Notes: a model not told the origin generated them from the sequence alone. A DNA stretch of 45,330 nt from Candidatus Heimdallarchaeota archaeon (GCA_023705945.1 BPTM01000158.1:1-45330); one strand, 5' to 3'. Positions 16 to 33,650 are shown, counted from the first letter of the stretch. Translations and numbers: made by a program.

Positions 16-1245
16 TTAAATATCCCAAGGAAACTCAGAAATTTCATCAGTTATATTCAATGTTCCACTTGGACTAACGAAGAATATGGTGGTTTCATAC
101 TCAATGTATATGTTATTACCAGCTACAATGAACCCTAGTACTACTCGAGAATACGGTCCACCATCTGGCCATGTAGCAGATTCGGTTTCCACCCAATCTT
201 TTGAATGTGTGTATGGACCATAACATCCGAAGCCATCCTCTCCAGGATTAAAACTTATCTGGAATGGCCAATCAATTCGATTGGATATCACAGGATCACA
301 TTTTTGTGGAGATAGCATTAGTTCATCCCATGAGGTTTCATAGGTAACTTCAGAATAGGTAAATTCATAGCCTACTCCACTTGCATAACTAAATTCCACT
401 ACTGCAGTCATGTCTATTTGTATCCAAGCCTCATATTCAAATCCTCCAGGGTCACGACAATCATAAGTAGTATAGAAAGTATGACTGTAGGTCAATCTGG
501 CATCAATAACATCGGGAGTGTTAAAAACTATGAAATAACCATAGTCATTTCTATAATTTCCACTTGTGTCAACAGCTTTTGCTTGTAATTCATAGATATC
601 ATTTGCTAAAGTTGTTGTATCAAAAATTGTTTCATAGGGGGCAGTATAGAACCTACCAAGATCAGCAACTACTTCATGGGTGTCAGAATCCTTAATGTAA
701 AATTGTACATAGTTAACCGCAACATTGTCATCAGCATTGGCTTTAATGGTAATGTCTCCATTAACTTCTATCCACTCAGGATAATATGTTACATCAGGGG
801 AAACTATGTCAACAGTAGGATTTGTGGTGTCAGGGGGAGGAGGGGTATAAAATGTGACAGAATGAGTATCTGAACGCATATTTCCAGCTGCATCAACAGC
901 AGTAGCTCTGATAGAGTGGAGACCGTTGATATAGTTAGCTGTGTTAGCGCTTTTTGTGTAAGAAGCTGTAGAATCATAACCTATATAGACTCCATCTATG
1001 TAGAAGTATACTCTATATACTCCAACATTATCACTAGCAGACGCTCGTATTGTGAATACTCCACTAACGGTTGCCCCATTCGAAGGGGAAGTAATAGATA
1101 CTGTAGGTCTTATTGTATCAGGTTGAGGATATCCAGGATCAAAACCCCAACTAACAACATTACTAATATTTGCAACAAGAAACACAATCACTAGAAATGA
1201 AAGTGTCGTTGTTATTTTTTTTAGATTTTTGTTCATTTTTTTCAC
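16..1245 (-). CDS. Secreted/membrane-anchored protein with two tandem Ig-like domains
   Basis: 409-aa ORF with an N-terminal hydrophobic segment (LSFLVIVFLVANI). It has two repeats of the pattern PTV.I.SP....V.G...I.A.A.DNV(G/A)V..V.FYI......A.AVD..GN, typical of prokaryotic Ig-like (Big-type) domains. The C-terminal ~170 aa are unassigned. Confidence 0.6.
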   Translation of the reverse strand: MKKMNKNLKKITTTLSFLVIVFLVANISNVVSWGFDPGYPQPDTIRPTVSITSPSNGATVSGVFTIRASASDNVGVYRVYFYIDGVYIGYDSTASYTKSANTANYINGLHSIRATAVDAAGNMRSDTHSVTFYTPPPPDTTNPTVDIVSPDVTYYPEWIEVNGDITIKANADDNVAVNYVQFYIKDSDTHEVVADLGRFYTAPYETIFDTTTLANDIYELQAKAVDTSGNYRNDYGYFIVFNTPDVIDARLTYSHTFYTTYDCRDPGGFEYEAWIQIDMTAVVEFSYASGVGYEFTYSEVTYETSWDELMLSPQKCDPVISNRIDWPFQISFNPGEDGFGCYGPYTHSKDWVETESATWPDGGPYSRVVLGFIVAGNNIYIEYETTIFFVSPSGTLNITDEISEFPWDI

Positions 1246-1566
1246 CTTTTAGTAGTTCCCACTAGTCACCAGACGACGTAGAACGTGAGCTGAGACCAAT
1301 ACGACTCACAATGTCACCCGAAGGCTAAAGTCTGGAATTCTGTGAAACCTAAGTACTAAACTCTAAGGAACTAAACCATAAGATCTAAACTTTGATTCCT
1401 GAGCCTTGAGAAAAATCCCTAGAGATTTCCCGAGCACTGAGTTTCAGTCAGTTGGATGGTCGCCGTTTGTTTTATCTAATTTAACTAGCGAAACTAGATA
1501 GTACTTAAAAAAGCCAATATTAATAGATTATGATTAATTATGCACTTGAAGTTTAAGCAGGAAAAT

Positions 1567-1586
1567 TATGGTGGTCGGACTGTGAT
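1567..1586 (-). repeat. Partial copy of the tRNA-Pro 3' exon (T-stem 3' half, acceptor 3' strand, ACCA)
   Basis: Plus strand tatggtggTcggacTgtgat at 1567-1586 matches tatggtggCcggacCgtgat at 1653-1672 at 18/20 positions by hand alignment. No matching 5' tRNA half is adjacent. Confidence 0.6.
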
Positions 1587-1654
1587 GTATCGTTTATATA
1601 CTGTTACTACAATGAAAAAAGGAAAGCACTTTTGCTAATTTAGTTAGAAGAGTA

Positions 1655-1763
1655 TGGTGGCCGGACCGTGATTTTCAATATTTCAGAGCGCATCTGAAGT
1701 TATTTTGAACACGGGATCACTGAGTCCCAAACCCAGGGCCATACCAAGCTAGACCATCCGGCC
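1655..1763 (-). tRNA. tRNA-Pro (anticodon UGG) with a 32-nt intron in the T-loop and encoded CCA
   Basis: Hand-folded on the minus strand. Acceptor GGCCGGA/TCCGGCC; D arm GTCT-AGCTTGGTA-TGGC; anticodon arm CTGGG-TTTGGGA-CTCAG (UGG, G37); variable loop TGATC; T stem CCGTG/CACGG; discriminator A then CCA. The 39 nt between the T-stem strands (1671-1709) are a 7-nt loop plus a 32-nt intron. Confidence 0.85.
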
Positions 1764-1838
1764 GAGAATGTCTCTCACTCTTTTGCCCCTCCTTATATAA
1801 TTAAGCTTTTCGTTCTTGTTATTACAGCTTAAACAAAC

Positions 1839-3380
1839 TCAATCAAACATCTCTCTATTTGCTAACATTAGCAATATATCTTCTAGTAGCCAGTTATTTA
1901 CTTGTGACCATAGCTTGCCTATAGCTAAATCTGCTAATGCCTGTTCAGCTGTATATGGTTTACTCATTACACTTGGAGGATAGATTGCTCTATCTCTATC
2001 CAGTGCTCCAAAATCATGACTGATCTCATGTTGAAAAATATTTTCTGCCCATTCATCTGGTATACTAAAACTGAATTCAAGGTAATTGTCTAGCTCTCTA
2101 GATTGTGCAAAATGAAAGGCGATATTACTATTAAGAAATGCAAAACCAAAATGATCACTCGTCTGATTAGAAAAACAAGAAAGAAAATCAAAACCATGAT
2201 TATTCAAAGATTTTCCATAGAAAACCTCCCAATCTCCTTCTAAATCCAACCCTTCACCAGCAATTTGCTTAGCATAATCATAAACACTAGGATATTCAGT
2301 TGTTGTGGGTTGCCAAATCAGCTCCAGAATGGGGATTAGTTTTATTCCAAGATCTTTTTCGAAATAGGTTGAAGCATTTTTAATATATATCATAGGATTT
2401 TTTCTGAAAACTTCATCATTCCTATATTCCCAATTATCGTTCAAGGAAACAATGAAGACTCTATGTTCATAGCTAATTACCGATATACTATCTAAGTAAA
2501 TATTAGTATACTCTGTAACTTCTGTAAAAATGATTTGAAGTGTGACATTGGCTATACCCTCAGTATGTTCAAAATAGATGATTTGATCTGTTGACGAGCT
2601 TTCAGTTAAGATAAGACTCATTATCTGTGGCGTATCGTTTATGGTCAAGTTAACTACTAAAATGCCTGGTTTATCCAACAGTATTTCAAAAGAAACGAAG
2701 TGTGCATTCGTCAAATTAATGTTTTGAGATATTGACACCCAAGTTGAGTTAGACGCTGTAATATTATCCAAGTTGAAAATATGGAATGAAGATCCGTTTA
2801 GTGGTGAAGAGGGGTCTATGCCAGAAATAAGTGTAGTTTCTAGTTTGTTAATCTCCCATCCAGCTGATTCATTGCTAAAATCTCCATTTGTGGCTTTTTC
2901 TTCCTTTTCAGGATTAATAATACTGAAATCAAAGTTTGTTTTCTCAAATACAGCAGGTAGTTGTTCTCCAAATGAAACATTAGCAGAATGCAGGTTATAA
3001 TTCCCTACATTTAATGCGTAGAATCCATCGCTTGAATTCAGAAGGGGATGCAAGAAAACTGTTATGTTATAACTGGCCTTCCCACTTTTGGTTTGGTTAA
3101 TTTCTTGAATAATTGTGGTGTTGAAATTATATTTCTCAGAGTATATACCAAACTGAATATTTTCTATTAAGACATCTCCTCTTTTACCAATATAAATCTC
3201 AAAAACTATTTTGACAGAATCTCCTTTTATTATACTCTCTTCAACGGAAATGATGTTCAACTCAAAGTCTGCTGTAATATCAAGAATTGTTTTAGTAATG
3301 AAAAAACCACTTAACCCAATCAAAATTAAAGATGCAAGAAAAATAGAAGTAAATAGGGGCTTCTTGAAAGGATTTTTCAC
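1839..3380 (-). CDS. Membrane-anchored, sequon-rich zinc metalloprotease (metzincin-like)
   Basis: 513 aa with an N-terminal TM segment (FTSIFLASLILIGLSGFFI). The C-terminal motif HEISHDFGALD fits HExxHxxGxxD and is followed by a possible Met-turn (PPSVMS). There are more than a dozen N-x-S/T sequons in the middle region. Confidence 0.65.
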   Translation of the reverse strand: MKNPFKKPLFTSIFLASLILIGLSGFFITKTILDITADFELNIISVEESIIKGDSVKIVFEIYIGKRGDVLIENIQFGIYSEKYNFNTTIIQEINQTKSGKASYNITVFLHPLLNSSDGFYALNVGNYNLHSANVSFGEQLPAVFEKTNFDFSIINPEKEEKATNGDFSNESAGWEINKLETTLISGIDPSSPLNGSSFHIFNLDNITASNSTWVSISQNINLTNAHFVSFEILLDKPGILVVNLTINDTPQIMSLILTESSSTDQIIYFEHTEGIANVTLQIIFTEVTEYTNIYLDSISVISYEHRVFIVSLNDNWEYRNDEVFRKNPMIYIKNASTYFEKDLGIKLIPILELIWQPTTTEYPSVYDYAKQIAGEGLDLEGDWEVFYGKSLNNHGFDFLSCFSNQTSDHFGFAFLNSNIAFHFAQSRELDNYLEFSFSIPDEWAENIFQHEISHDFGALDRDRAIYPPSVMSKPYTAEQALADLAIGKLWSQVNNWLLEDILLMLANREMFD

Positions 3381-3434
3381 GACCCTAGTGTAGCTTCAAA
3401 CCAATATATGCTTTTGGAATAGTAGGAAATAAAA

Positions 3435-4166
3435 CTAACTAGCCTCCGTTTTAGCTCCCTTTTCTTTTTCTATATCTACCTTTTGACCCATCTTTCTTTC
3501 AGTTCCTGTTAGAAGTCGTTTGATATTTGCTCTGTGCCTCCAATAAATAAAAACTACCATTACTATACTAACTATCAAAGCCCATAAACTTTGATTACCA
3601 AAGAAACCATTACCACTACCACCAAAATACCAGTAAAAGGGTATGGAGATCAATGTTACAGTTAAATTCGAGAGAGACATTAGTTTTGTATATTTCAGGA
3701 GGAAGAACCAGATAAACATGATTACTGCCCACGCAATAGGGCTAATCCCCAACATTGCTCCTGATCCGACTGCAGCAGATTTACCTCCTCGGAATTTAAG
3801 CCAAACAGGAAAACTGTGACCAATTATAGTCATAAAAGCTACTAGAGCTAAGAAGAATCCCTCATCTAAGGTCAATGGAAAGCCACTGGTACTATCAGTT
3901 CCAAAATAGCTATAATTGCCAAACCAAAGATAAAACCTAGCACATAAAACAGCTATCGTTCCCTTGAACATATCTAGAACCAAAGTTGTTAATCCCGCTT
4001 TCTTTCCGAGAGTCCTCAAAACATTAGCGGTCCCCATGTTACCTGAACCGTGTTCTCTGATATCTATGCCATAAAAAAGTTTTCCAATTAAGTACGCAAC
4101 AGGGATGGATCCGCAGAAATAACCTAGTACTATTAATAGAATTTCATAAACTATTTCATAACTCAT
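3435..4166 (-). CDS. plsY: Glycerol-3-phosphate acyltransferase PlsY (acyl-phosphate dependent)
   Basis: 243-aa polytopic membrane protein. N-terminal GYFCGSIPVAYLIGK, the signature HGSGNMGTANVLRTLGKKAG and downstream LDMFKG match the PlsY family pattern. Confidence 0.85.
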   Translation of the reverse strand: MSYEIVYEILLIVLGYFCGSIPVAYLIGKLFYGIDIREHGSGNMGTANVLRTLGKKAGLTTLVLDMFKGTIAVLCARFYLWFGNYSYFGTDSTSGFPLTLDEGFFLALVAFMTIIGHSFPVWLKFRGGKSAAVGSGAMLGISPIAWAVIMFIWFFLLKYTKLMSLSNLTVTLISIPFYWYFGGSGNGFFGNQSLWALIVSIVMVVFIYWRHRANIKRLLTGTERKMGQKVDIEKEKGAKTEAS

Positions 4167-4276
4167 GATGTAAAGGTCTAGAGACTTTTATTTAAAACTT
4201 ATTTGAAAATGTAAAAAGATGTAAAATGTCCACTAAGCTAAAGACAAGAAAAATAAGAAGCGTTTTTAGGAAGAAT

Positions 4277-4528
4277 TTATTTCTCGACGCAGATCATCGT
4301 CATTGTGCTACGTACATTCTCCAGTGCTCGGAGATTTTCTGTAACAATTTTCTTTAATTCATCCATGGTATCTGCTTCAATCTTCGCAATTAGGTCATAG
4401 ACACCATAGACTACATGGGCTTCACCGACATTTGGAAGAGACATAAGTTGGTCAAGTACGCTTTTTTCTTCTCCTATTTCGCTATTAATCAGGATGAATG
4501 CTATTGCCATTTGGATTTCACCAACCAA
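4277..4528 (-). CDS. Stand-alone Lrp/AsnC-type ligand-binding (RAM) domain protein, no HTH
   Basis: 83 aa. AFILINSEIGEEKSVLDQLMSLPNVGEAHVVYGVYDLIAKIEADTMDELKKIV...VRSTMTMI is the classic RAM-domain beta-alpha-beta-beta-alpha-beta pattern. An alternative start is Met7 (4510). Confidence 0.7.
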   Translation of the reverse strand: MVGEIQMAIAFILINSEIGEEKSVLDQLMSLPNVGEAHVVYGVYDLIAKIEADTMDELKKIVTENLRALENVRSTMTMICVEK

Positions 4529-4624
4529 CTATATGTCAACACGTTTAATAAACTTTTTTCAGACATTAACAATTTGTGTATAAATCAACGATATTTTATA
4601 GTCACATTAGCTGAATCATCATAT

Positions 4625-5401
4625 ATGCCTACAGATCCACATTCTGAACGATTAAAAGAGCTTGCTAGATCGTACTATTTTAAAAATACCAAGAAGAAAT
4701 CAAAGAGCATAGTAATTCTAGTACATGGTTTTGGTGCTTCAGCTACAGAGACGCGGCCGCTAGGAAAGTTTCTTTATTCTGAAGGATATGATGTAATGGG
4801 AATCCTCCTGAAGGGGCATGGAACTAAACTTGATGATTTGGATGACGTAAGTTGGGAAGAATGGATTGGTAACATACAGGAAACATATGATGAATATACT
4901 TCTAAGTATTCCAACATCTTTGTTGGGGGGATTTCGATGGGAGGAGCTCTAGCTCTATATTCCTCTACACAGATGAAATTCAAAGCTATTTTTACTATCA
5001 GCGCTTTTTATCACTTATCAAAGACTTTGTCTTTTACTACATGTTTTCTAAGTCTTTTTGGGGTTCACAGACAAAGAAGTAAAGCAAGAATTAAGTGGTA
5101 TGTGGAAAATAATCTTTTTTCCTATTCTGAAGATTCTTTCTCAGCAGCTAGACAATTATACAAAATGTTAAAGGCATTACACAGGAAAATAGATGAAGTT
5201 AACGTTCCAGTATTAATGATTCAGTCTAAAGAGGATATAACAGCTAAACCAGAAGGAGCAGAGAAGCTGTACGAAGACTTGAAAACCAAAAAGGAATTGT
5301 TCTTTGTACAGAATGGGGATCATATTTTGACTGTAGATCCACATAGACAAGAGGCTTTTGATAAAATACTATCATTTCTTGGAGAAATGGTGAAAAACTA
5401 A
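4625..5401 (+). CDS. Alpha/beta-hydrolase, carboxylesterase/monoacylglycerol-lipase-like
   Basis: The tracked ORF starts at 4415, but that extension overlaps the divergent RAM gene. The internal ATG at 4625 gives MPTDPHS.... Motifs are VILVHGFGAS (oxyanion region), LKGHGT and the nucleophile elbow GISMGG, with late Asp/His candidates (SKEDI, GDHIL). Confidence 0.8.
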   Translation: MPTDPHSERLKELARSYYFKNTKKKSKSIVILVHGFGASATETRPLGKFLYSEGYDVMGILLKGHGTKLDDLDDVSWEEWIGNIQETYDEYTSKYSNIFVGGISMGGALALYSSTQMKFKAIFTISAFYHLSKTLSFTTCFLSLFGVHRQRSKARIKWYVENNLFSYSEDSFSAARQLYKMLKALHRKIDEVNVPVLMIQSKEDITAKPEGAEKLYEDLKTKKELFFVQNGDHILTVDPHRQEAFDKILSFLGEMVKN

Positions 5402-5493
5402 GAAAACCTTGTTGAAGGCATAAATGCAATTCAAAAAGCCAATAACGAAAGATATTAAAAAGATGAGACAGAAAAACGGATAGCACAAGCGAA

Positions 5494-5602
5494 GCCTCGA
5501 TGGTGTAGTTCGGCCAATCATTGCGGACTTTCACATGTGAAAGTCCGCGTGACAAAGCAGGGATATCCGCAGACCCGGGTTCAAATCCCGGTCGAGGCAC
5601 CA
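5494..5602 (+). tRNA. tRNA-Glu (anticodon UUC) with a 31-nt anticodon-loop intron and encoded CCA
   Basis: Acceptor GCCTCGA/TCGAGGC; D arm GTGT-AGTTCGGCCAA-TCAT (archaeal tRNA-Glu-like); anticodon stem GCGGA/TCCGC enclosing 38 nt (7-nt loop CTTTCA+A plus a 31-nt intron at or next to position 37/38); T arm CCGGG-TTCAAAT-CCCGG; A73 then CCA. Confidence 0.9.
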
Positions 5603-5697
5603 ACTCTTTTCAAACAAGAATTTTCCTAAACAAATAATTCTGTTACCACATATGCTCACTTTTATTAATAGCATTATGCTGTGTTTCATGACTTAGA

Positions 5698-6165
5698 ATG
5701 GTTCATTATAGAAAAGCAACATTAACTGATGTTGAAAACTTGGTTAATCTCCGAATAAAATTTCTCTATGAAGCTGAGAAGATAGATGAAGAAACACCAT
5801 CTGATTTACTTGAAGAATCTCTCTCTAAGTACTTCACTATTCATCTACAGAATGGAGAATTCATAGCTTGGTTTGCTGTAGAAGATGACCTAATTGTAGC
5901 AACTAGCGGAGTGTCTTTTAGTACTGTGCCACCAAGTTTTGGAAATGTTTCGGGAGCAGAAGCTTACATTATAAACATGTATACTCTACCTCAGGCACGA
6001 AAGAAAGGTATAGGAACTACATTACTAGGGAAACTAATAGAAGATATAGCAGAGAAGAAGATTAAGAAAGTAAGATTACTTACAACAGAAATAGGTAAGT
6101 CACTGTATATCAAAACAGGATTTAAAGAAAGTGATTCTGAAATGGTATTAAATCTTGAAGAATGA
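5698..6165 (+). CDS. GNAT-family N-acetyltransferase
   Basis: 155 aa. The acetyl-CoA binding motif A is QARKKGIGTTLLGKLIE, and the size and pattern are typical of GNAT. Confidence 0.8.
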   Translation: MVHYRKATLTDVENLVNLRIKFLYEAEKIDEETPSDLLEESLSKYFTIHLQNGEFIAWFAVEDDLIVATSGVSFSTVPPSFGNVSGAEAYIINMYTLPQARKKGIGTTLLGKLIEDIAEKKIKKVRLLTTEIGKSLYIKTGFKESDSEMVLNLEE

Positions 6166-6236: not shown

Positions 6237-6321
6237 GCGGGGATTGCCGAGTGGTCAAAGGCGCTGGACTTAGGATCCAGTCTTTAGTAGTTCGGGAGTT
6301 CGACTCTCCCTCCCCGCACCA
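6237..6321 (+). tRNA. tRNA-Leu (anticodon UAG), class II, intron-less, encoded CCA
   Basis: Acceptor GCGGGGA/TCCCCGC; D arm GCC-GAGTGGTCAAA-GGC; anticodon arm CTGGA-CTTAGGA-TCCAG; long variable arm TCTTTAGTAGTTC; T arm GGGAG-TTCGACT-CTCCC; A73 then CCA. Confidence 0.95.
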
Positions 6322-9477: not shown

Positions 9478-10776
9478 ATGAGTCCAATGAATGTTTTTCT
9501 AGCATATGACCACAGTAAAAACGAATTTAGTGAGATAAAAGAACAAACTAAATTCCAAAAAATTATGGAATCTGATGCTTCTGATATTAGTTCTCAACTG
9601 AGGAGCATGGATGTGGATGGCGTCCTAATCTTCAATCGAGATAAAAATGAATGGAATCTTATTTTTGGTAAACACGTTGGCCTTGTAGCTCAAAGAACAG
9701 GAAGACGCCAAGCTGATAATATTAGTAGAGCCGGTTTTCAGTTAGCAAATGGGGAAAGAGTTGGAGCAAAGAGTCGACTTGAACAACTTACTGAAGATAA
9801 TATAGGAGATTTAAACCTAACCGTTCAGCAGAAGTATATTGAAACAGATCTATCTGGATTTCAAGGAGATTCTAGACAAGATGCTTACCCAAGACAAGTG
9901 TTTTCTAGAGTAGAAAAACCAGTAGAAGAAACAAAACCTCAAGCTATTCCTGAGCAGAAGCTAGGTCCACCAACTGAGTATCCTGTAGACATGGAACCAG
10001 CTACTGGACCTGCAGTAGAGCCTGAACCTGTTGTTGTTTCTGAGCCTGAACCTGAACCTGAACCTGAGCCTGAGGCTGAACCTCAAACTCTTGTTTTTTC
10101 TGAGATTGAGCCAGTTATCGAAGAACCCGTTGTTGAGCCTGAAGCTGAACCCGTTGTTGAGCCTGAAGCTGAACCCGTTGTTGAGACTGAGGCTGAACCC
10201 GTTGTTGAGCCTGAAGCTGAACCCGTTGTTGTTGAAGCGACTGTCGAAGAACTTGTTGAGAAAACCTTAGAGGATACAATTGAAGATGTTGTAACTGAGG
10301 TTGTTGAAGATGTTGTCGACGATATTGCGGAAACAATTGCAAAGCGTGTAGCTGAAGAGGTAGGTGACGACGCACTCGAAGGGGTGGTTAAGGAAGCAAT
10401 TGAAGAAAAATCAGAAGAACTTGTTTCAAAGGTTGTCGAAGATGTTGTCGAAGAAGTAATTGAAGAAGCAAAAGAAGAAATTGCTGAATCTACAGAAGAC
10501 ACAGTTGAAGAGATTGTTGAAGAGATTGTTGAAGAAGTAACCGATGCCGTTGAGGAAACACTTGAGGACGACCTAGAAGAAATAGTTGAAAAGGTTGTTG
10601 AAGAAAATGTTGAAGACATAAGTCAAGAAGCTGCAGAACATCTTGCAGAAGATGTTGTCGAAGAAGTTTTGGAAGAAGCAGTAGAAGACATGGTTGAAGA
10701 AGCAGCAGAAGATGCAACTATAGAATTGTCTGAAGCAATAGAAAAATCTCTAAACGAAGAAACAGAAGATTCCTAA
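9478..10776 (+). CDS. Extremely acidic repeat protein: ~150-aa N-terminal domain, EP(V/E)-rich repeats, long E/V/D-rich tail
   Basis: 432 aa. It contains EPEPEPEPEPEAEPQ and four EPVVEPEA units, then about 200 aa of VEEVVEDVVEE-type low-complexity sequence. No TM segment and no family assigned. Confidence 0.6.
   Translation: MSPMNVFLAYDHSKNEFSEIKEQTKFQKIMESDASDISSQLRSMDVDGVLIFNRDKNEWNLIFGKHVGLVAQRTGRRQADNISRAGFQLANGERVGAKSRLEQLTEDNIGDLNLTVQQKYIETDLSGFQGDSRQDAYPRQVFSRVEKPVEETKPQAIPEQKLGPPTEYPVDMEPATGPAVEPEPVVVSEPEPEPEPEPEAEPQTLVFSEIEPVIEEPVVEPEAEPVVEPEAEPVVETEAEPVVEPEAEPVVVEATVEELVEKTLEDTIEDVVTEVVEDVVDDIAETIAKRVAEEVGDDALEGVVKEAIEEKSEELVSKVVEDVVEEVIEEAKEEIAESTEDTVEEIVEEIVEEVTDAVEETLEDDLEEIVEKVVEENVEDISQEAAEHLAEDVVEEVLEEAVEDMVEEAAEDATIELSEAIEKSLNEETEDS
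10123..10232 (+). repeat. 24-bp in-frame tandem repeat (gaacccgttgttgagcctgaagct, ~4.5 units) encoding EPVVEPEA
   Basis: Units start at 10123, 10147, 10171 (variant gagactgaggct) and 10195, with a partial unit at 10219. It is preceded by hexamer cctgaa/cctgag repeats at ~10038-10082. Confidence 0.9.
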
Positions 10777-29597: not shown

Positions 29598-30197
29598 TTA
29601 AGATAAATTGGAACCACAGCTCTCACAGAATTGCATACCTGCACTAGCCTTATGACCACAATAGGGACAGAAGTTAACCTCACCGGAGGGATAAATAACT
29701 TCAAGCTGTTTTTGAGAGATGGGTTCTGTAAATTCGGGAGATTTTTCATAATTGACTGTTTCACCAAGCATAATCTCACCTGATGCTGTATCATAACGAT
29801 ATTTAGCTTGACCTGTATTACGCAGATCAACAAGTACGCGAAGAACGTTCTTAGGTTTAATACCAGTCTCTTCAGCCAAAGTTTCAAGTTTAACGGAGCT
29901 ATCGCCACGGTTTTGAACAGCGCGTAAAACATTGTTACGCATTCGACGATCAGAGTCTAAATGGCCAATAGCACCAATTATAGTGAAAAAGGCGGGAATG
30001 AAAAACCAGTAACCCCAAGAAGCTAAGCCTATAAAATCTATACCGTAGCGTCTAAACAATAGTGATAGAATGCCTATAGCAATGAAAACAACCCCTGTAC
30101 CAAAGGCAGAATAATCTCCTTTGTAATCTTTTTTGGAATAATAGCGATTTTGTGACATAATTCTCAAGCTGAATATGACTTGGACTTTATTAAACAT
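29598..30197 (-). CDS. Membrane protein with 2 TM helices, a wHTH-like segment and a C-terminal zinc ribbon
   Basis: 199 aa; the likely start is Met14 at 30158. TM helices are FGTGVVFIAIGILSLLF and WGYWFFIPAFFTIIGAIG. LETLAEETGIKPKNVLRVLVDLRNTG is HTH-like. The C-terminus is CPYCGHKASAGMQFCESCG. Confidence 0.55.
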   Translation of the reverse strand: MFNKVQVIFSLRIMSQNRYYSKKDYKGDYSAFGTGVVFIAIGILSLLFRRYGIDFIGLASWGYWFFIPAFFTIIGAIGHLDSDRRMRNNVLRAVQNRGDSSVKLETLAEETGIKPKNVLRVLVDLRNTGQAKYRYDTASGEIMLGETVNYEKSPEFTEPISQKQLEVIYPSGEVNFCPYCGHKASAGMQFCESCGSNLS

Positions 30198-30231: not shown

Positions 30232-30678
30232 TTAGGTGTTTCTACTCTTTCTTAGTTTGCTAAATAGTAGAACAATCAGAAATCTCAGGCCAATACCAAT
30301 AATAGAGCAACCAATTGTCATTAGAACGTAGAGCAAGGTAATAGCAAGATTCTGCGGTTTCCAAACCTCATCCAAAACCCCCAAATGTATATAGTAAAAC
30401 ACTGCTATTAAATTTATTTCAATATAGAAAAACAATGAATAAAAGGCACCAGAGATTAAACCATCAACTTTTTTTAAGGGTATTAAGCCTGAGATAAAAC
30501 CACCCAAACCAATAAGAGATAGCAAGAGAATGGCTGATTCTAATTCGGGATCAAAGTAGAAAAGATAATCGAGTAGAAAAGATAAATTGAAAACTAAAAC
30601 TCCAAGAATAACACCAAGAATAATAAATAAAGTACGTTTCTTTCTCTCTGCTAATTTATCAATTCCTTTAAGTGCCAT
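30232..30678 (-). CDS. Small membrane protein (4 predicted TM helices)
   Basis: 148-aa ORF that is hydrophobic throughout, with a basic C-terminus. Confidence 0.5.
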   Translation of the reverse strand: MALKGIDKLAERKKRTLFIILGVILGVLVFNLSFLLDYLFYFDPELESAILLLSLIGLGGFISGLIPLKKVDGLISGAFYSLFFYIEINLIAVFYYIHLGVLDEVWKPQNLAITLLYVLMTIGCSIIGIGLRFLIVLLFSKLRKSRNT

Positions 30679-30823
30679 AGCATATTATACAAGGAAGATG
30701 TAACTGATAAATTTATAGTTACTTAAGGTGAGTATCATACTTATTTTTTAAGATTAAACTAGAAAGGGAAATAGAACAAAAAACTTTTAATGGAATGGTG
30801 AAGAAAAAAGATAGAACAATGTT

Positions 30824-30931
30824 GCCTAGATAGCTTAGCTGGGAGAGCGCAGGACTGAAGATCCTGTTGTCGCGTGTTCAAGAACCATTTCAGATGCGTT
30901 CTGAAAGTTGAAAATCACGCTCTGGGCTCCA
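30824..30931 (+). tRNA. tRNA-Phe (anticodon GAA) with a 32-nt intron in the T-loop and encoded CCA
   Basis: Acceptor GCCTAGA/TCTGGGC (one G-U pair); D arm GCTT-AGCTGGGA-GAGC; anticodon arm CAGGA-CTGAAGA-TCCTG; variable loop TTGTC; T stem GCGTG/CACGC enclosing 39 nt (30877-30915), a 7-nt loop plus a 32-nt intron. The discriminator reads U, then CCA. Confidence 0.85.
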
Positions 30932-30998: not shown

Positions 30999-32465
30999 AT
31001 GGTTAATGAAAACGATTCTATTAAATCCACATCTTTTGATGATGAGACAGCGGTCTCTTCACCAAAGTCTAATCTTCGGTCTACTGGAGTTATGGCTTCA
31101 TATGGTGTTGGAAAGTTCCTAGCTGAGTTCTTTACAGGTGCTTTTGGTGCTCTTGTTTTCTTCTATTTTGAGACCGAGCTTGGTTTGAAAACATGGCTTG
31201 CTGCTCTTGCTCTTGTTATTTATTCTATTTGGAATGCAGTGAACGATCCTGTTATCGGCTTTCTTACTGAGAAACCAACTTTCCTTTCCAAGAAACTTGG
31301 AAGGCGTTTTCCATGGATTATTTTTGGGGCACTCGTCTGGGTTTTCTCCTTTGTTCTTATATTTACCGTCCCTACATCTATAAGATCAAGTGATGGTGCA
31401 CTTTTTGCTTGGATGGTGTTGACAATTTGTTTGTATGATACCCTTTACTCTGTTTGGGAAGTGAATTATCAAAGTACCTTTGTTGATAAATTTAGAAGTC
31501 ATAAAGTTCGCAACAAAGCTGCAAGTATTGCTATTGTCATTGGTGTAATTGGTATTGCTGCAGGAGCTTTACTCCCAACATTCATAGTTGAATACAGTGA
31601 GTTTTTACCTGTATATGTTGATAACTCCGCCACTTTTATCACCAATGGATGGGTATTCTCTATTGTAGGTTTTGCATTGATATTTACAATGATTCCAGGG
31701 GTTAAAGAAACTCCTAAAATGATTGAACGGTACATGAAAAGCGTTGAATCTGAGGAAAAGGAAGGGTTCTTCAAACAGTTAAGGAAAGCTTTTACTCATA
31801 AAAACTTCCTCGCATTCATTCTACTTTTCTTCTTCTATCAAGCTGCTACTATGTCACTAACGGGAAGTATACATTATGTGGGGAAATATTTCTTAGGAAA
31901 TGTAGCAAAAACTACGCCTATTTTTGCTGCTATGCTAGCCGGAGCTTTAGTCTCAATTCCTATCTGGCTCTACTTCATTAAAAGGGTTCAAGACAATCAA
32001 AAGATGATTACAATAGCTGCTCTACTAATTGGTGCAAGCTTCATCCCGATGATTTTCCTTCGTGGTCAAATTGGTTTCATTATCGCTTTAGCTTTCTGGG
32101 GAATGAGTTTTGGTGGTTTTTGGCTTATCATGACTCCAGCTATGGCTGATTCAATAGATGAGATAGTTGTGAAAACAGGGAAACGAAATGATGGTATATT
32201 CTTAGGTTTTCGAGCATTTTTTGGGCGTTTATCTTATGCTGTCCAAGGTCTATCCTTCTGGGCTATACATGAACTTACAGGTTTCGATTCTGATCCTAAC
32301 GCTACAACTCAGACAGATCTCGCTCTGTGGGGAATCAATTTCCATTTGGCGCTAATTCCAGCTGTACTAGTTATAATTGGAGCAATTGTTTTCTGGAAAC
32401 TTAATACTTTGAATAAGGAGAAAGTTGCTAATATTAAGGTTAAACTAAAAGAAATGGATTTGTAA
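30999..32465 (+). CDS. GPH/MFS_2-family cation symporter (glycoside-pentoside-hexuronide type)
   Basis: 488 aa with 12 TM helices. The N-terminal pattern YGVGKF....FF...LGL....L..V..I..AVNDP.IG is typical of MelB/GPH transporters. Confidence 0.8.
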   Translation: MVNENDSIKSTSFDDETAVSSPKSNLRSTGVMASYGVGKFLAEFFTGAFGALVFFYFETELGLKTWLAALALVIYSIWNAVNDPVIGFLTEKPTFLSKKLGRRFPWIIFGALVWVFSFVLIFTVPTSIRSSDGALFAWMVLTICLYDTLYSVWEVNYQSTFVDKFRSHKVRNKAASIAIVIGVIGIAAGALLPTFIVEYSEFLPVYVDNSATFITNGWVFSIVGFALIFTMIPGVKETPKMIERYMKSVESEEKEGFFKQLRKAFTHKNFLAFILLFFFYQAATMSLTGSIHYVGKYFLGNVAKTTPIFAAMLAGALVSIPIWLYFIKRVQDNQKMITIAALLIGASFIPMIFLRGQIGFIIALAFWGMSFGGFWLIMTPAMADSIDEIVVKTGKRNDGIFLGFRAFFGRLSYAVQGLSFWAIHELTGFDSDPNATTQTDLALWGINFHLALIPAVLVIIGAIVFWKLNTLNKEKVANIKVKLKEMDL

Positions 32466-32543
32466 CTTAGCAAGTTCTTTCCTCCTATTTTCTTTCTCCA
32501 CATTCCCTAAAAAAGTTATAAATGTTTGAAGTCTCTTTCTTTT

Positions 32544-33650
32544 ATGAGATTTCCTCTTGCTTTAGATCAAATTATTTCCTTTTTCACTGCTTTTCTTCTT
32601 ATTATTTTGTTGTCTATCTCTTCAAATTTAGTTTTAGCTACTAGTAATTACGAATCTGTTGAAATCATCGAACTTGGACAGATATTAACAGGAGGAAGTG
32701 CAGTGTGTGTTGAAGTTTTTGAAAACATTGCATACCTTACAGATGATTTTACTGGTTTTCATATTATCGATGTCAGTTCCCCTTCTGATCCTGTTGAATT
32801 AGCTTTTGAATATATTGCAAATTCATACTTTTTTGATTTGGATATGACTTCAAATAGAGCATATGTTACAAGTTTATTTCAAGGATTGTTTATTTATGAT
32901 ATCAGTGATCCAACTAATCCTATAGAAGTAGGTCGTTTCAATGATGATAGAACTTATTCACAAGGTATAATCTATAAAAACAATCTTGTTTACATAGCTG
33001 ATGGTAACAATGGTCTGGAAATCATTGATGTTAGCACCCCTGCCAATCCAATTAAAATAGGAAACTTTACTGATATAGGTGACGTGCGAACACTATTTAT
33101 CAAAGAAAATCTCTGTTTTATTGGTTCAACGATCAATGGGTCTCATACTTCTTTAATACTATTGGATGTAACTGATCCTGTTTCCCCAACTCATATCTCT
33201 ACTTATACAACCCTTGGAAATGTCATGGACATATGTGTAAATGAGAGTTTAGTTTTTTATTCAACATGGGAATACGGTTTTGAAATCATTAATTATGAAA
33301 ATACTTCTTCTCCTTATTTTTTGAGTTCCTATAACGATGTGGGTTCTTCATCACACGTAATAGTAGAAGGTAGTACAATGTATGAAGCTGCTGTAACAGG
33401 AGGTTTGAAAGTAATAGACATCTCAAATTTCTCTCAACCAATAGAATTAGGTCATTATTTTGACGGAGGACAAGCTTTAGGGTTGTGTTTACGAGATAAT
33501 TTAATTTATGTTGCTGATAAAAGTGGTGGATTAGAGATTTTAGAAATAACATTTAACATAATTGGAAAAACAGGTGCATTTACGTTCTTCGTTGTTTTAG
33601 CTATATTTCCTGTTTCTTATTGTTATAGAAAGAGATTCAAAATGTCATAA
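32544..33650 (+). CDS. LVIVD-repeat beta-propeller surface protein with a C-terminal TM anchor
   Basis: Repeated units are AY(L/V)T....G(F/L).I(I/Y)D(V/I)S.P..P, for example FHIIDVSSPSDPVEL, LFIYDISDPTNPIEV, LEIIDVSTPANPIKI and LKVIDISNFSQPIEL. I prefer the ATG at 32544; the track uses TTG at 32526. Confidence 0.75.
   Translation: MRFPLALDQIISFFTAFLLIILLSISSNLVLATSNYESVEIIELGQILTGGSAVCVEVFENIAYLTDDFTGFHIIDVSSPSDPVELAFEYIANSYFFDLDMTSNRAYVTSLFQGLFIYDISDPTNPIEVGRFNDDRTYSQGIIYKNNLVYIADGNNGLEIIDVSTPANPIKIGNFTDIGDVRTLFIKENLCFIGSTINGSHTSLILLDVTDPVSPTHISTYTTLGNVMDICVNESLVFYSTWEYGFEIINYENTSSPYFLSSYNDVGSSSHVIVEGSTMYEAAVTGGLKVIDISNFSQPIELGHYFDGGQALGLCLRDNLIYVADKSGGLEILEITFNIIGKTGAFTFFVVLAIFPVSYCYRKRFKMS

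Follow-up and report, generated by a model that had tools for sequence, protein, structure and literature searches.

Related T-loop inserts in tRNA genes of Heimdallarchaeaceae, predicted to be archaeal introns at position 59/60

Two tRNA genes with a widened T-loop

Why should two tRNA genes that look ordinary in every other respect carry T-stem strands 39 nt apart, when the normal distance is 7? The genes in question encode tRNA-Phe(GAA) (30824..30931, + strand) and tRNA-Pro(UGG) (1655..1763, - strand), and both lie on a 45,330-nt sequence from a Candidatus Heimdallarchaeota archaeon (GCA_023705945.1, BPTM01000158.1:1-45330), referred to below as the window. We conclude that the two loci very probably function as tRNA genes in this member of the Heimdallarchaeaceae (Asgard), and that the T-loop of each is interrupted at position 59/60 by a short archaeal intron (30-33 nt) of the protein-spliced type.

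The genes themselves are intact. Both possess the complete set of tRNA elements: a 7-bp acceptor stem, U8, a D-arm with G18 and G19, an anticodon arm (GAA or UGG), a 5-nt variable loop, a T-stem closed by G53-C61 and an encoded CCA. The distance between the T-stem strands (GCGUG/CACGC in tRNA-Phe, CCGUG/CACGG in tRNA-Pro) is the sole abnormality of either gene; it had been recognised in an earlier sequence-only reading of this DNA, and the sequences quoted there are present on the strands and at the positions given. Run on the window, ARAGORN found tRNA-Leu alone and called neither the Phe nor the Pro locus, and the Rfam tRNA model at its gathering threshold likewise returned only tRNA-Leu. 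Below that threshold the Phe locus gave a misaligned 25-bit match and the Pro locus nothing. Removing 32 nt from each gene, as that reading had proposed, restored a normal T-loop: the insert-free tRNA-Phe has 76 nt and the 7-nt loop UUCAAGU, the insert-free tRNA-Pro has 77 nt and the loop UUCAAAU, and ARAGORN then called tRNA-Phe(gaa) and tRNA-Pro(tgg). The predicted 32-nt introns lie at 30883..30914 (+) in tRNA-Phe (AACCAUUUCAGAUGCGUUCUGAAAGUUGAAAA) and at 1672..1703 (-) in tRNA-Pro (AUAACUUCAGAUGCGCUCUGAAAUAUUGAAAA).

The two inserts are homologous. They are 79% identical (26/33 columns), compared with only 55% for tRNA positions 1-48. The core TTCAGATGCG(Y)TCTGAAA that had been noted in both genes occurs at exactly two sites in the window, where 0.11 would be expected even allowing 3 mismatches; the flanking frame GTTCAA...TTGAAAATC is likewise confined to these two sites (0.04 expected). 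The core forms a hairpin at 30889..30906 (+) in tRNA-Phe (UUCAGA-UGCGU-UCUGAA[A]), an exact match with pairing supported in ten distinct homologues, and at 1681..1698 (-) in tRNA-Pro (UUCAGA-UGCGC-UCUGAA[A]), where the match is evident from the alignment.

Orthologues and age of the insert family

Relatives of the two loci (designated below by numbers with the prefix L) were recovered through conserved neighbours and through pattern scans. A Zn-ribbon protein beside tRNA-Phe (29598-30197) and a 513-aa protein beside tRNA-Pro (1839-3380) served as synteny anchors. The Phe-side anchor is 62% identical to that of the window in L134, 60% in L135 and 56% in L136, and the Pro-side anchor 43% in L142 and 41% in L143; for both proteins, the source records label homologues as Candidatus Heimdallarchaeota or Heimdallarchaeaceae archaeon. 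A scan of a genome collection, with one genome per species and a loop-degenerate pattern, found the intron in a tRNA context, among the matches listed, in four Heimdallarchaeota metagenome-assembled genomes (MAGs) only; about 115 of the matches listed were chance occurrences in AT-rich bacteria. Matches in Nitrosopumilus (L061) and Promethearchaeota (L101) were also due to chance, their sequence not being tRNA. The locus L063 (MAG HM4_B41) is 84-89% identical to window positions 47-5869. Neighbouring proteins and MAG matches together assign the window to the Heimdallarchaeaceae. A metagenome scan gave ten loci: L124, L130 and L132 (Phe) and L131 (Tyr) were genuine, and the other six were chance matches within one protein-coding gene.

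The T-loop insert is present in every tRNA-Phe and tRNA-Pro orthologue that was recovered, and the exons around it show compensatory substitutions. In tRNA-Phe the acceptor stem has changed from U4.G69 to C4-G69 and from A7-U66 to G7-C66, and the anticodon stem from A28-U42 to U28-A42; in tRNA-Pro three pairs of the anticodon stem have changed compensatorily (orthologues L063, L142 and L143). The encoded CCA of tRNA-Phe is constant among orthologues. Each gene is preceded, at a distance of about 30-40 nt, by a conserved TATA-like block within a spacer that otherwise diverges: AAAA(A/G)CTTTTAATGG precedes every tRNA-Phe orthologue, and AACAAGAACGAAA(A/G)GCTTAATTA precedes tRNA-Pro in L063, L142 and L143. 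In the window these putative promoters are represented by CTTTTAAT, ~36 nt upstream of tRNA-Phe (30784..30791, +), and by GCTTAATTATATAA, upstream of tRNA-Pro (1793..1806, -).

The discriminator base of tRNA-Phe is a separate peculiarity. A73 is the usual identity element for PheRS. The window gene has U73 at 30928, as had been suspected, and the same base is found in L124, L132, L134, L135 and L136. Since U73 is kept in every recovered Heimdallarchaeaceae orthologue, it is a trait of this lineage rather than a mutation.

According to the sequence-only reading, the idea of an intron family would fail if the core were missing from all other tRNA loci of the genome and from relatives; the family does occur in these relatives, and so withstands that check. 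It has a third host, tRNA-Tyr(GUA), in the Heimdall MAG loci L091 and L092 and on the metagenome contig L131. This gene has the archaeal/eukaryal C1-G72 pair, a T-arm identical to that of tRNA-Pro and two introns, one of 46 nt at the canonical position 37/38 and one of 31 nt in the T-loop that belongs to the same family (L091 ~5510-5680, +); its restored T-loop is UUCAAAU. Additional canonical 37/38 introns are present in GCA_030603365.1, where they measure 15 nt in tRNA-Phe (L135 ~9752-9870, -) and 23 nt in tRNA-Pro (L142 7593-7723, +). The window copies of tRNA-Phe and tRNA-Pro have no canonical intron. To judge from these comparisons, canonical introns have been gained or lost among orthologues, and the T-loop intron has remained constant.

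Two closely similar introns in one 45-kb window might suggest an active or recently active family, as the sequence-only reading proposed. On such a view, the Phe and Pro copies would have arisen lately, by transposition, reverse splicing or gene conversion, and the element would still be spreading. This would account for the 18-nt core that differs between the window copies only at the degenerate Y, for their overall identity and for the presence of the family in three different tRNAs; the near identity of the T-arm exons beside the intron in all three hosts also favours recombination. Nevertheless, we consider it improbable. Relatives with only 41-65% identity in the flanking proteins have each intron at the orthologous locus. 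Within a single genome, GCA_030603365.1, the Phe (L135, AAGGUUUCAGAUGCGUUCUGUGACAUUGAAUA) and Pro (L142, AAGUUUCAGAUGCGUUCUGAAACGCUGAAAA) introns differ in the 3' arm of the hairpin (UCUGUG vs UCUGAA), at the 3' end (UUGAA-UAU vs CUGAA-AAU), where both the central-helix strand and the bulge are affected, and in the spacer, and hence have not been homogenised, whereas orthologues share derived states: CUGAA in the Pro introns of L142 and L143, and ACAUUGAAUA in the Phe introns of L132, L134 and L135. A covariance model of the T-arm plus intron found no extra copies in 220 kb of Heimdall DNA. The hairpin core gave 22 chance matches in viral contigs, none of them in a T-loop context, and these searches gave no sign of a viral or mobile origin. 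The pattern is one of vertical inheritance, because paralogues in the same genome have diverged and orthologues have derived states in common. We take the family to be old, inherited vertically since before these Heimdallarchaeaceae lineages diverged and not recently active.

How the family reached three tRNAs is a question about a more distant past. The core UUCAGAUGCG-N-UCUGAA and a UGAA-NN end recur at the same tRNA position in the introns of Phe, Pro and Tyr, which would descend from one ancestral intron. Its spread to one and the same site in tRNAs with a common xCGUG/CACGx T-arm would predate the divergence of the sampled Heimdallarchaeaceae. Almost the whole T-arm is common to the three hosts (xCGUG-UUCAA-R...U-CACGx), and the window genes for tRNA-Glu and tRNA-Leu, which have no T-loop intron, have different T-arms. 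Given this distribution, the ancient spread may have proceeded by gene conversion of the T-arm together with its intron as much as by intron transposition. Homologues of the Zn-ribbon protein at 42-47% identity, including one on a Promethearchaeota contig, have no adjacent tRNA-Phe, so that none of them supplies an intron-less outgroup orthologue for dating the gain of the intron.

Splice-site architecture and predicted maturation

The ten distinct T-arm-plus-intron sequences from the three tRNAs were aligned. All follow one layout. From 5' to 3', the T-stem strand xCGUG and U54-A57 are followed by N59 and a variable spacer, the hairpin UUCAGA-UGCGN-UCUGAA with 1-3 further pairs, a second variable spacer of 1-3 nt, a UGAA strand, a 3-nt bulge and the 3' strand of the T-stem. 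The UGAA strand is complementary to the T-loop, and the resulting central helix UUCA/UGAA (U54-A, U55-A, C56-G, A57-U) is invariant in 10/10 sequences; with a T-loop strand that does not vary, this helix has no room for covariation. In 8/10 copies A58-U adds a fifth pair, whereas L142 and L143 have an A-C mismatch at that place, which leaves exactly 4 bp as the conserved central helix. The 3' bulge measures exactly 3 nt in all ten copies; its first two bases are AA, UA or AC, and its last, U60, is always fixed. In tRNA-Phe, part of this 3' splice-site element occupies 30911..30915 (+), comprising the last AA (30911-30912) of the UGAA strand (30909-30912) and the bulge A-A-U60 (30913-30915).

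The pairing scheme as a whole is conserved. Over 18 pairs in ten sequences, 96.6% of cells hold standard pairs, a value reached by 0/500 shuffles and compared with 24-52% in slid controls. Both sides have changed at four pairs. One of these lies in the hairpin of L136, which has C-G in place of U-A next to a pair that went from U-A to U.G, and the hairpin base covaries (GC/GC vs GU/AC). Minimum-free-energy folds of the isolated arm recover the T-stem, 3-nt bulge and central helix in 7/10 sequences; the Pro fold consists of the T-stem, a 3-nt bulge AAU, a 5-bp helix and the hairpin. The arrangement is that of a relaxed bulge-helix-bulge, one of the motifs that the sequence-only reading had advised looking for in both inserts.

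The substrate of the archaeal splicing endonuclease is a 4-bp helix with flanking 3-nt bulges that hold the splice sites; relaxed hBH/HBh' motifs, in which each site merely lies between two helices, are also accepted (PMC4090602). As modelled, the intron arm would reproduce this substrate geometry, with a canonical 3' site and a relaxed 5' site. Since loop and helix length vary on the 5' side, the motif is best assigned to the relaxed hBH/HBh' class and not to the strict hBHBh' form. The Phe copies allow a 3-nt 5' bulge (A58-N59-i1) followed by pairing to be drawn; in the minimum-free-energy folds the 5' side is a bulge or internal loop of 1-9 nt.

Several observations weigh against an intron of this kind. 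The folds of 3/10 isolated T-arms lack the central helix, most copies have no strict 3-nt bulge at the 5' splice site, where the loop ranges from 2 to 6 nt, and the central helix may reach a length of 5-6 bp. No splicing endonuclease gene was seen among the window open reading frames (ORFs) scanned.

The canonical ruler, which derives from the 37/38 case, places each cut two nucleotides into a bulge. On the 5' side it counts 4 bp and a further 2 nt from where the central helix begins, on the 3' side 2 nt into the 3-nt bulge, and in tRNA-Phe and tRNA-Pro alike it points to a junction between nucleotide 59 and U60. The splice point had earlier been left ambiguous between positions 56 and 59. That range can be narrowed: 56/57 and 57/58 are excluded because some orthologues have UAU or ACU in place of AAU before the 3' T-stem strand, and a non-A base would then occupy the universally conserved A58. 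A junction at 58/59 is formally possible, and the ruler favours 59/60. Among the ten homologues, ARAGORN recognised 0/10 genes with the insert and, after deletion at 59/60, 10/10 as the correct tRNA (Phe gaa, Pro tgg or Tyr gta); the deletion leaves exactly a 7-nt T-loop in 10/10, despite intron lengths of 30-33 nt. These calls, together with the compensatory changes in the exons, uphold the proposal of intact tRNA genes interrupted by a related short T-loop intron with archaeal splice-site architecture.

An alternative is that the insert is retained, as a stable expansion hairpin emerging from the T-loop between 59 and 60 and forming an extra arm of the mature tRNA. In T-loop motifs, positions 59-60 are flipped out, and they tolerate insertions in other RNAs; from general structural knowledge, then, an insertion could be accepted at this point, and the sequence of the hairpin core is more conserved than a mere spacer needs. 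We judge this highly improbable in view of the structure just described. The invariant UGAA is complementary to U54-A57 and stands exactly 3 nt from the T-stem, which is the endonuclease geometry, and its persistence would destroy the T-loop fold. The first two bases of the bulge are free and U60 is fixed, as expected at an intron/exon boundary, and predicted excision always leaves 7 nt although the insert varies in length.

That the loci are pseudogenes disrupted by a small palindromic repeat, or assembly artefacts, is scarcely credible: covariance and heuristic tRNA finders do fail at both, and the insert is a nested palindrome resembling small mobile repeats, but many independent assemblies (Logan, ENA, JGI, NCBI) contain these interrupted genes, the Heimdall DNA searched has the insert in tRNA contexts only, and both readings are ruled out by the compensatory exon changes together with the conserved U73, CCA ends and TATA-like blocks. 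Near-identical contigs were found in several Logan assemblies of DDBJ (DRR-prefixed) runs. Two further candidates were discarded. A C/D-box or K-turn hairpin (AGAUGC...CUGA) was rejected by eye on account of its poor C box, the lack of a guide region and a fully Watson-Crick stem with compensatory changes, and a group I or other self-splicing intron is ruled out by the size of 30-33 nt.

For an archaeal intron at 59/60, maturation would proceed as follows. In the precursor, the 3' UGAA of the intron would pair with U54-A57 of the T-loop, forming the 4-bp central helix of a relaxed bulge-helix-bulge and sequestering the loop. The T-stem would serve as the outer helix and the 3-nt bulge N-N-U60 would present the 3' splice site, with the 5' splice site after nucleotide 59, in the variable 2-6 nt loop between the central helix and the conserved intron hairpin. 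A broad-specificity (alpha-beta)2 splicing endonuclease, as reported for Asgard archaea, would cut both sites, and an RtcB-type ligase would join the exons into a canonical 7-nt T-loop. An (alpha-beta)2 EndA with an L1 insert has been described in Asgard archaea including Heimdallarchaeota AB_125 (Kaneta et al. 2018, PMC5829648), and in Crenarchaeota the L1 insert confers cleavage of relaxed motifs (PMC5829648). Besides this form, the epsilon2 enzyme is able to cut relaxed motifs. The T-loop intron precursors offer a defined substrate for testing Asgard EndA.

Hairpin core, known introns and genomic setting

The hairpin core UCAGAUGCG-N-UCUG (UCAGA-UGCG-N-UCUG) is invariant at 13/14 positions in ten copies from three tRNAs, and the flanking spacers vary freely. 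If the stem were constrained by pairing alone, more compensatory turnover would be expected in its top four pairs and in the loop. Part of this conservation may be general to introns: in tRNA-Glu, window and L142 likewise have ~85% of the canonical intron in common, with intergenic flanks that cannot be aligned save for the promoter. Between the window and L136, the Phe intron changes ~3x faster than the exons. It is possible, if doubtful, that the hairpin is not a passive spacer and that its core marks a sequence-specific function. Candidate roles would include a binding site for the Heimdall splicing endonuclease or for another factor in T-arm processing or modification, a checkpoint that keeps U54-A57 of the T-loop paired until some maturation step, and a stable small RNA after excision. 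The T-loop intron might also be kept as it breaks the T-arm/acceptor target of tRNA-gene integrases; viruses and "aloposons" integrate at tRNA genes in Heimdallarchaeum (PMC8813620). Introns of this class are usually taken to be constrained by structure only, and the invariant core hints at recognition of a specific sequence.

Introns in the T-loop are of a published kind. Positions 53/54, 56/57 and 59/60 are listed among archaeal non-canonical intron sites, and tRNA-Pro(UGG) of Pyrobaculum islandicum has an intron at 56/57 (PMC4090602). T-loop bulge-helix-bulge introns are recorded from Crenarchaeota (Thermoproteales), Thaumarchaeota and Nanoarchaeota (Marck & Grosjean 2003 and Sugahara 2007/2008, as cited in PMC4090602). 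The sequence-only reading spoke of a few archaeal lineages; the host here is an Asgard archaeon, outside the lineages classically cited. Like those introns, as they are summarised there, the Heimdall examples are short, build helix-bulge-helix sites of relaxed hBH/HBh'-like geometry through exon-intron pairing and can co-occur with a canonical 37/38 intron in one gene (here L091 Tyr, L135 Phe and L142 Pro). Unlike them, they are hosted by Heimdallarchaeaceae, draw their central helix from the universally conserved T-loop bases U54-A57 and keep the sequence of their hairpin core across three hosts and deep divergence.

Families shared between tRNAs also have precedents. Similar introns in different tRNAs of Thermoproteales have been interpreted as large-scale transposition (Fujishima et al. 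2010, cited in PMC4033280). As far as that citation describes them, the Thermoproteales families resemble the present one in placing homologous introns at the same position of different isoacceptors (here Phe, Pro and Tyr). They differ in that the Heimdall family occupies one position in three hosts so far and appears old and vertical, with no recent spread, and in that the T-arm exons are shared too, so that T-arm gene conversion seems as likely as intron transposition.

Closer relatives are rich in tRNA introns. In Atabeyarchaeia and Freyarchaeia, introns are present in 92-95% of tRNA genes and are often non-canonical and multiple, including in the 3' part (PMC11291895). The Heimdall loci belong to the same superphylum and share with them non-canonical positions that include the 3' part, multiple introns per gene and a tendency to be partly missed by predictors. 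Introns are fewer here, with two T-loop introns, one canonical intron and one intron-free gene among the four tRNA genes of the window, and a specific conserved T-loop family is not described in that paper (PMC11291895). A clade-specific consensus of thaumarchaeal non-canonical introns is used in the second bulge-helix-bulge covariance model of tRNAscan-SE 2.0 (PMC8450103); going by that description, the Heimdall introns likewise have a recognisable clade consensus in sequence, beyond structure. The Heimdall core UCAGAUGCG-N-UCUG has its only record in the present analysis. In the paper on circular Heimdallarchaeum genomes, tRNAs are annotated mainly as integration sites (PMC8813620). We found no published description of a Heimdallarchaeaceae T-loop intron family in the literature. 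Introns at 59/60, families shared between tRNAs and intron-rich Asgard tRNAs are already published, and the Heimdallarchaeaceae family adds to a known kind. Among known archaea, Heimdallarchaeia stand closest to the eukaryotes, in which tRNA introns lie almost only at 37/38. An old, stably inherited 59/60 family would indicate that broad-specificity tRNA splicing was in use in the Heimdallarchaeia lineage.

The family also has a practical consequence for annotation. Genes for tRNA-Phe, tRNA-Pro(UGG) and tRNA-Tyr are invisible to ARAGORN and to the Rfam tRNA model in the Heimdallarchaeaceae clade; therefore, statements on the completeness of Heimdallarchaeia MAGs, or on "missing" tRNAs, can be wrong unless T-loop introns are modelled. 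The other two tRNA genes of the window behave differently from each other. tRNA-Leu(UAG) (6237-6321, +) is intron-free, and tRNA-Glu(UUC) (5494-5602, +) has a canonical 37/38 intron of ~31-33 nt and was missed by the default ARAGORN run and by Rfam at the gathering threshold; it scores 48.4 bits in Rfam with permissive filters. The 3' CCA is encoded in all four genes (Pro, Glu, Leu and Phe).

The window has a G+C content of ~35%, and its genes are of an ordinary cellular kind, among them a formate-dehydrogenase-like molybdopterin enzyme, hydantoinase A and B, a major facilitator superfamily (MFS) transporter, an M20 peptidase and a PlsY-like acyltransferase. L124, L134, L135 and L136 lack a 148-aa ORF without a Pfam match (30232-30678, -) that in the window separates the Zn-ribbon gene from tRNA-Phe, and the genes 3' of tRNA-Phe (30999-33650, +; the MFS transporter and an LVIVD-repeat protein) differ from those of the relatives. 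Gene content around tRNA-Phe is therefore variable, as at integration hot spots. On the Pro side, the PlsY-type glycerol-3-phosphate acyltransferase (PF02660, E=1e-51; 3435-4166, -), a bacterial-type ester-lipid enzyme, is syntenic beside the tRNA-Pro neighbour in distant Heimdallarchaeaceae as well (L142 5214-5927, L143 306-1019). No gelsolin-domain gene was seen among the window ORFs scanned; proteins with this domain, a eukaryotic signature family, are encoded in the syntenic region of the relatives L135 (5263-5943) and L136 (4915-5634).

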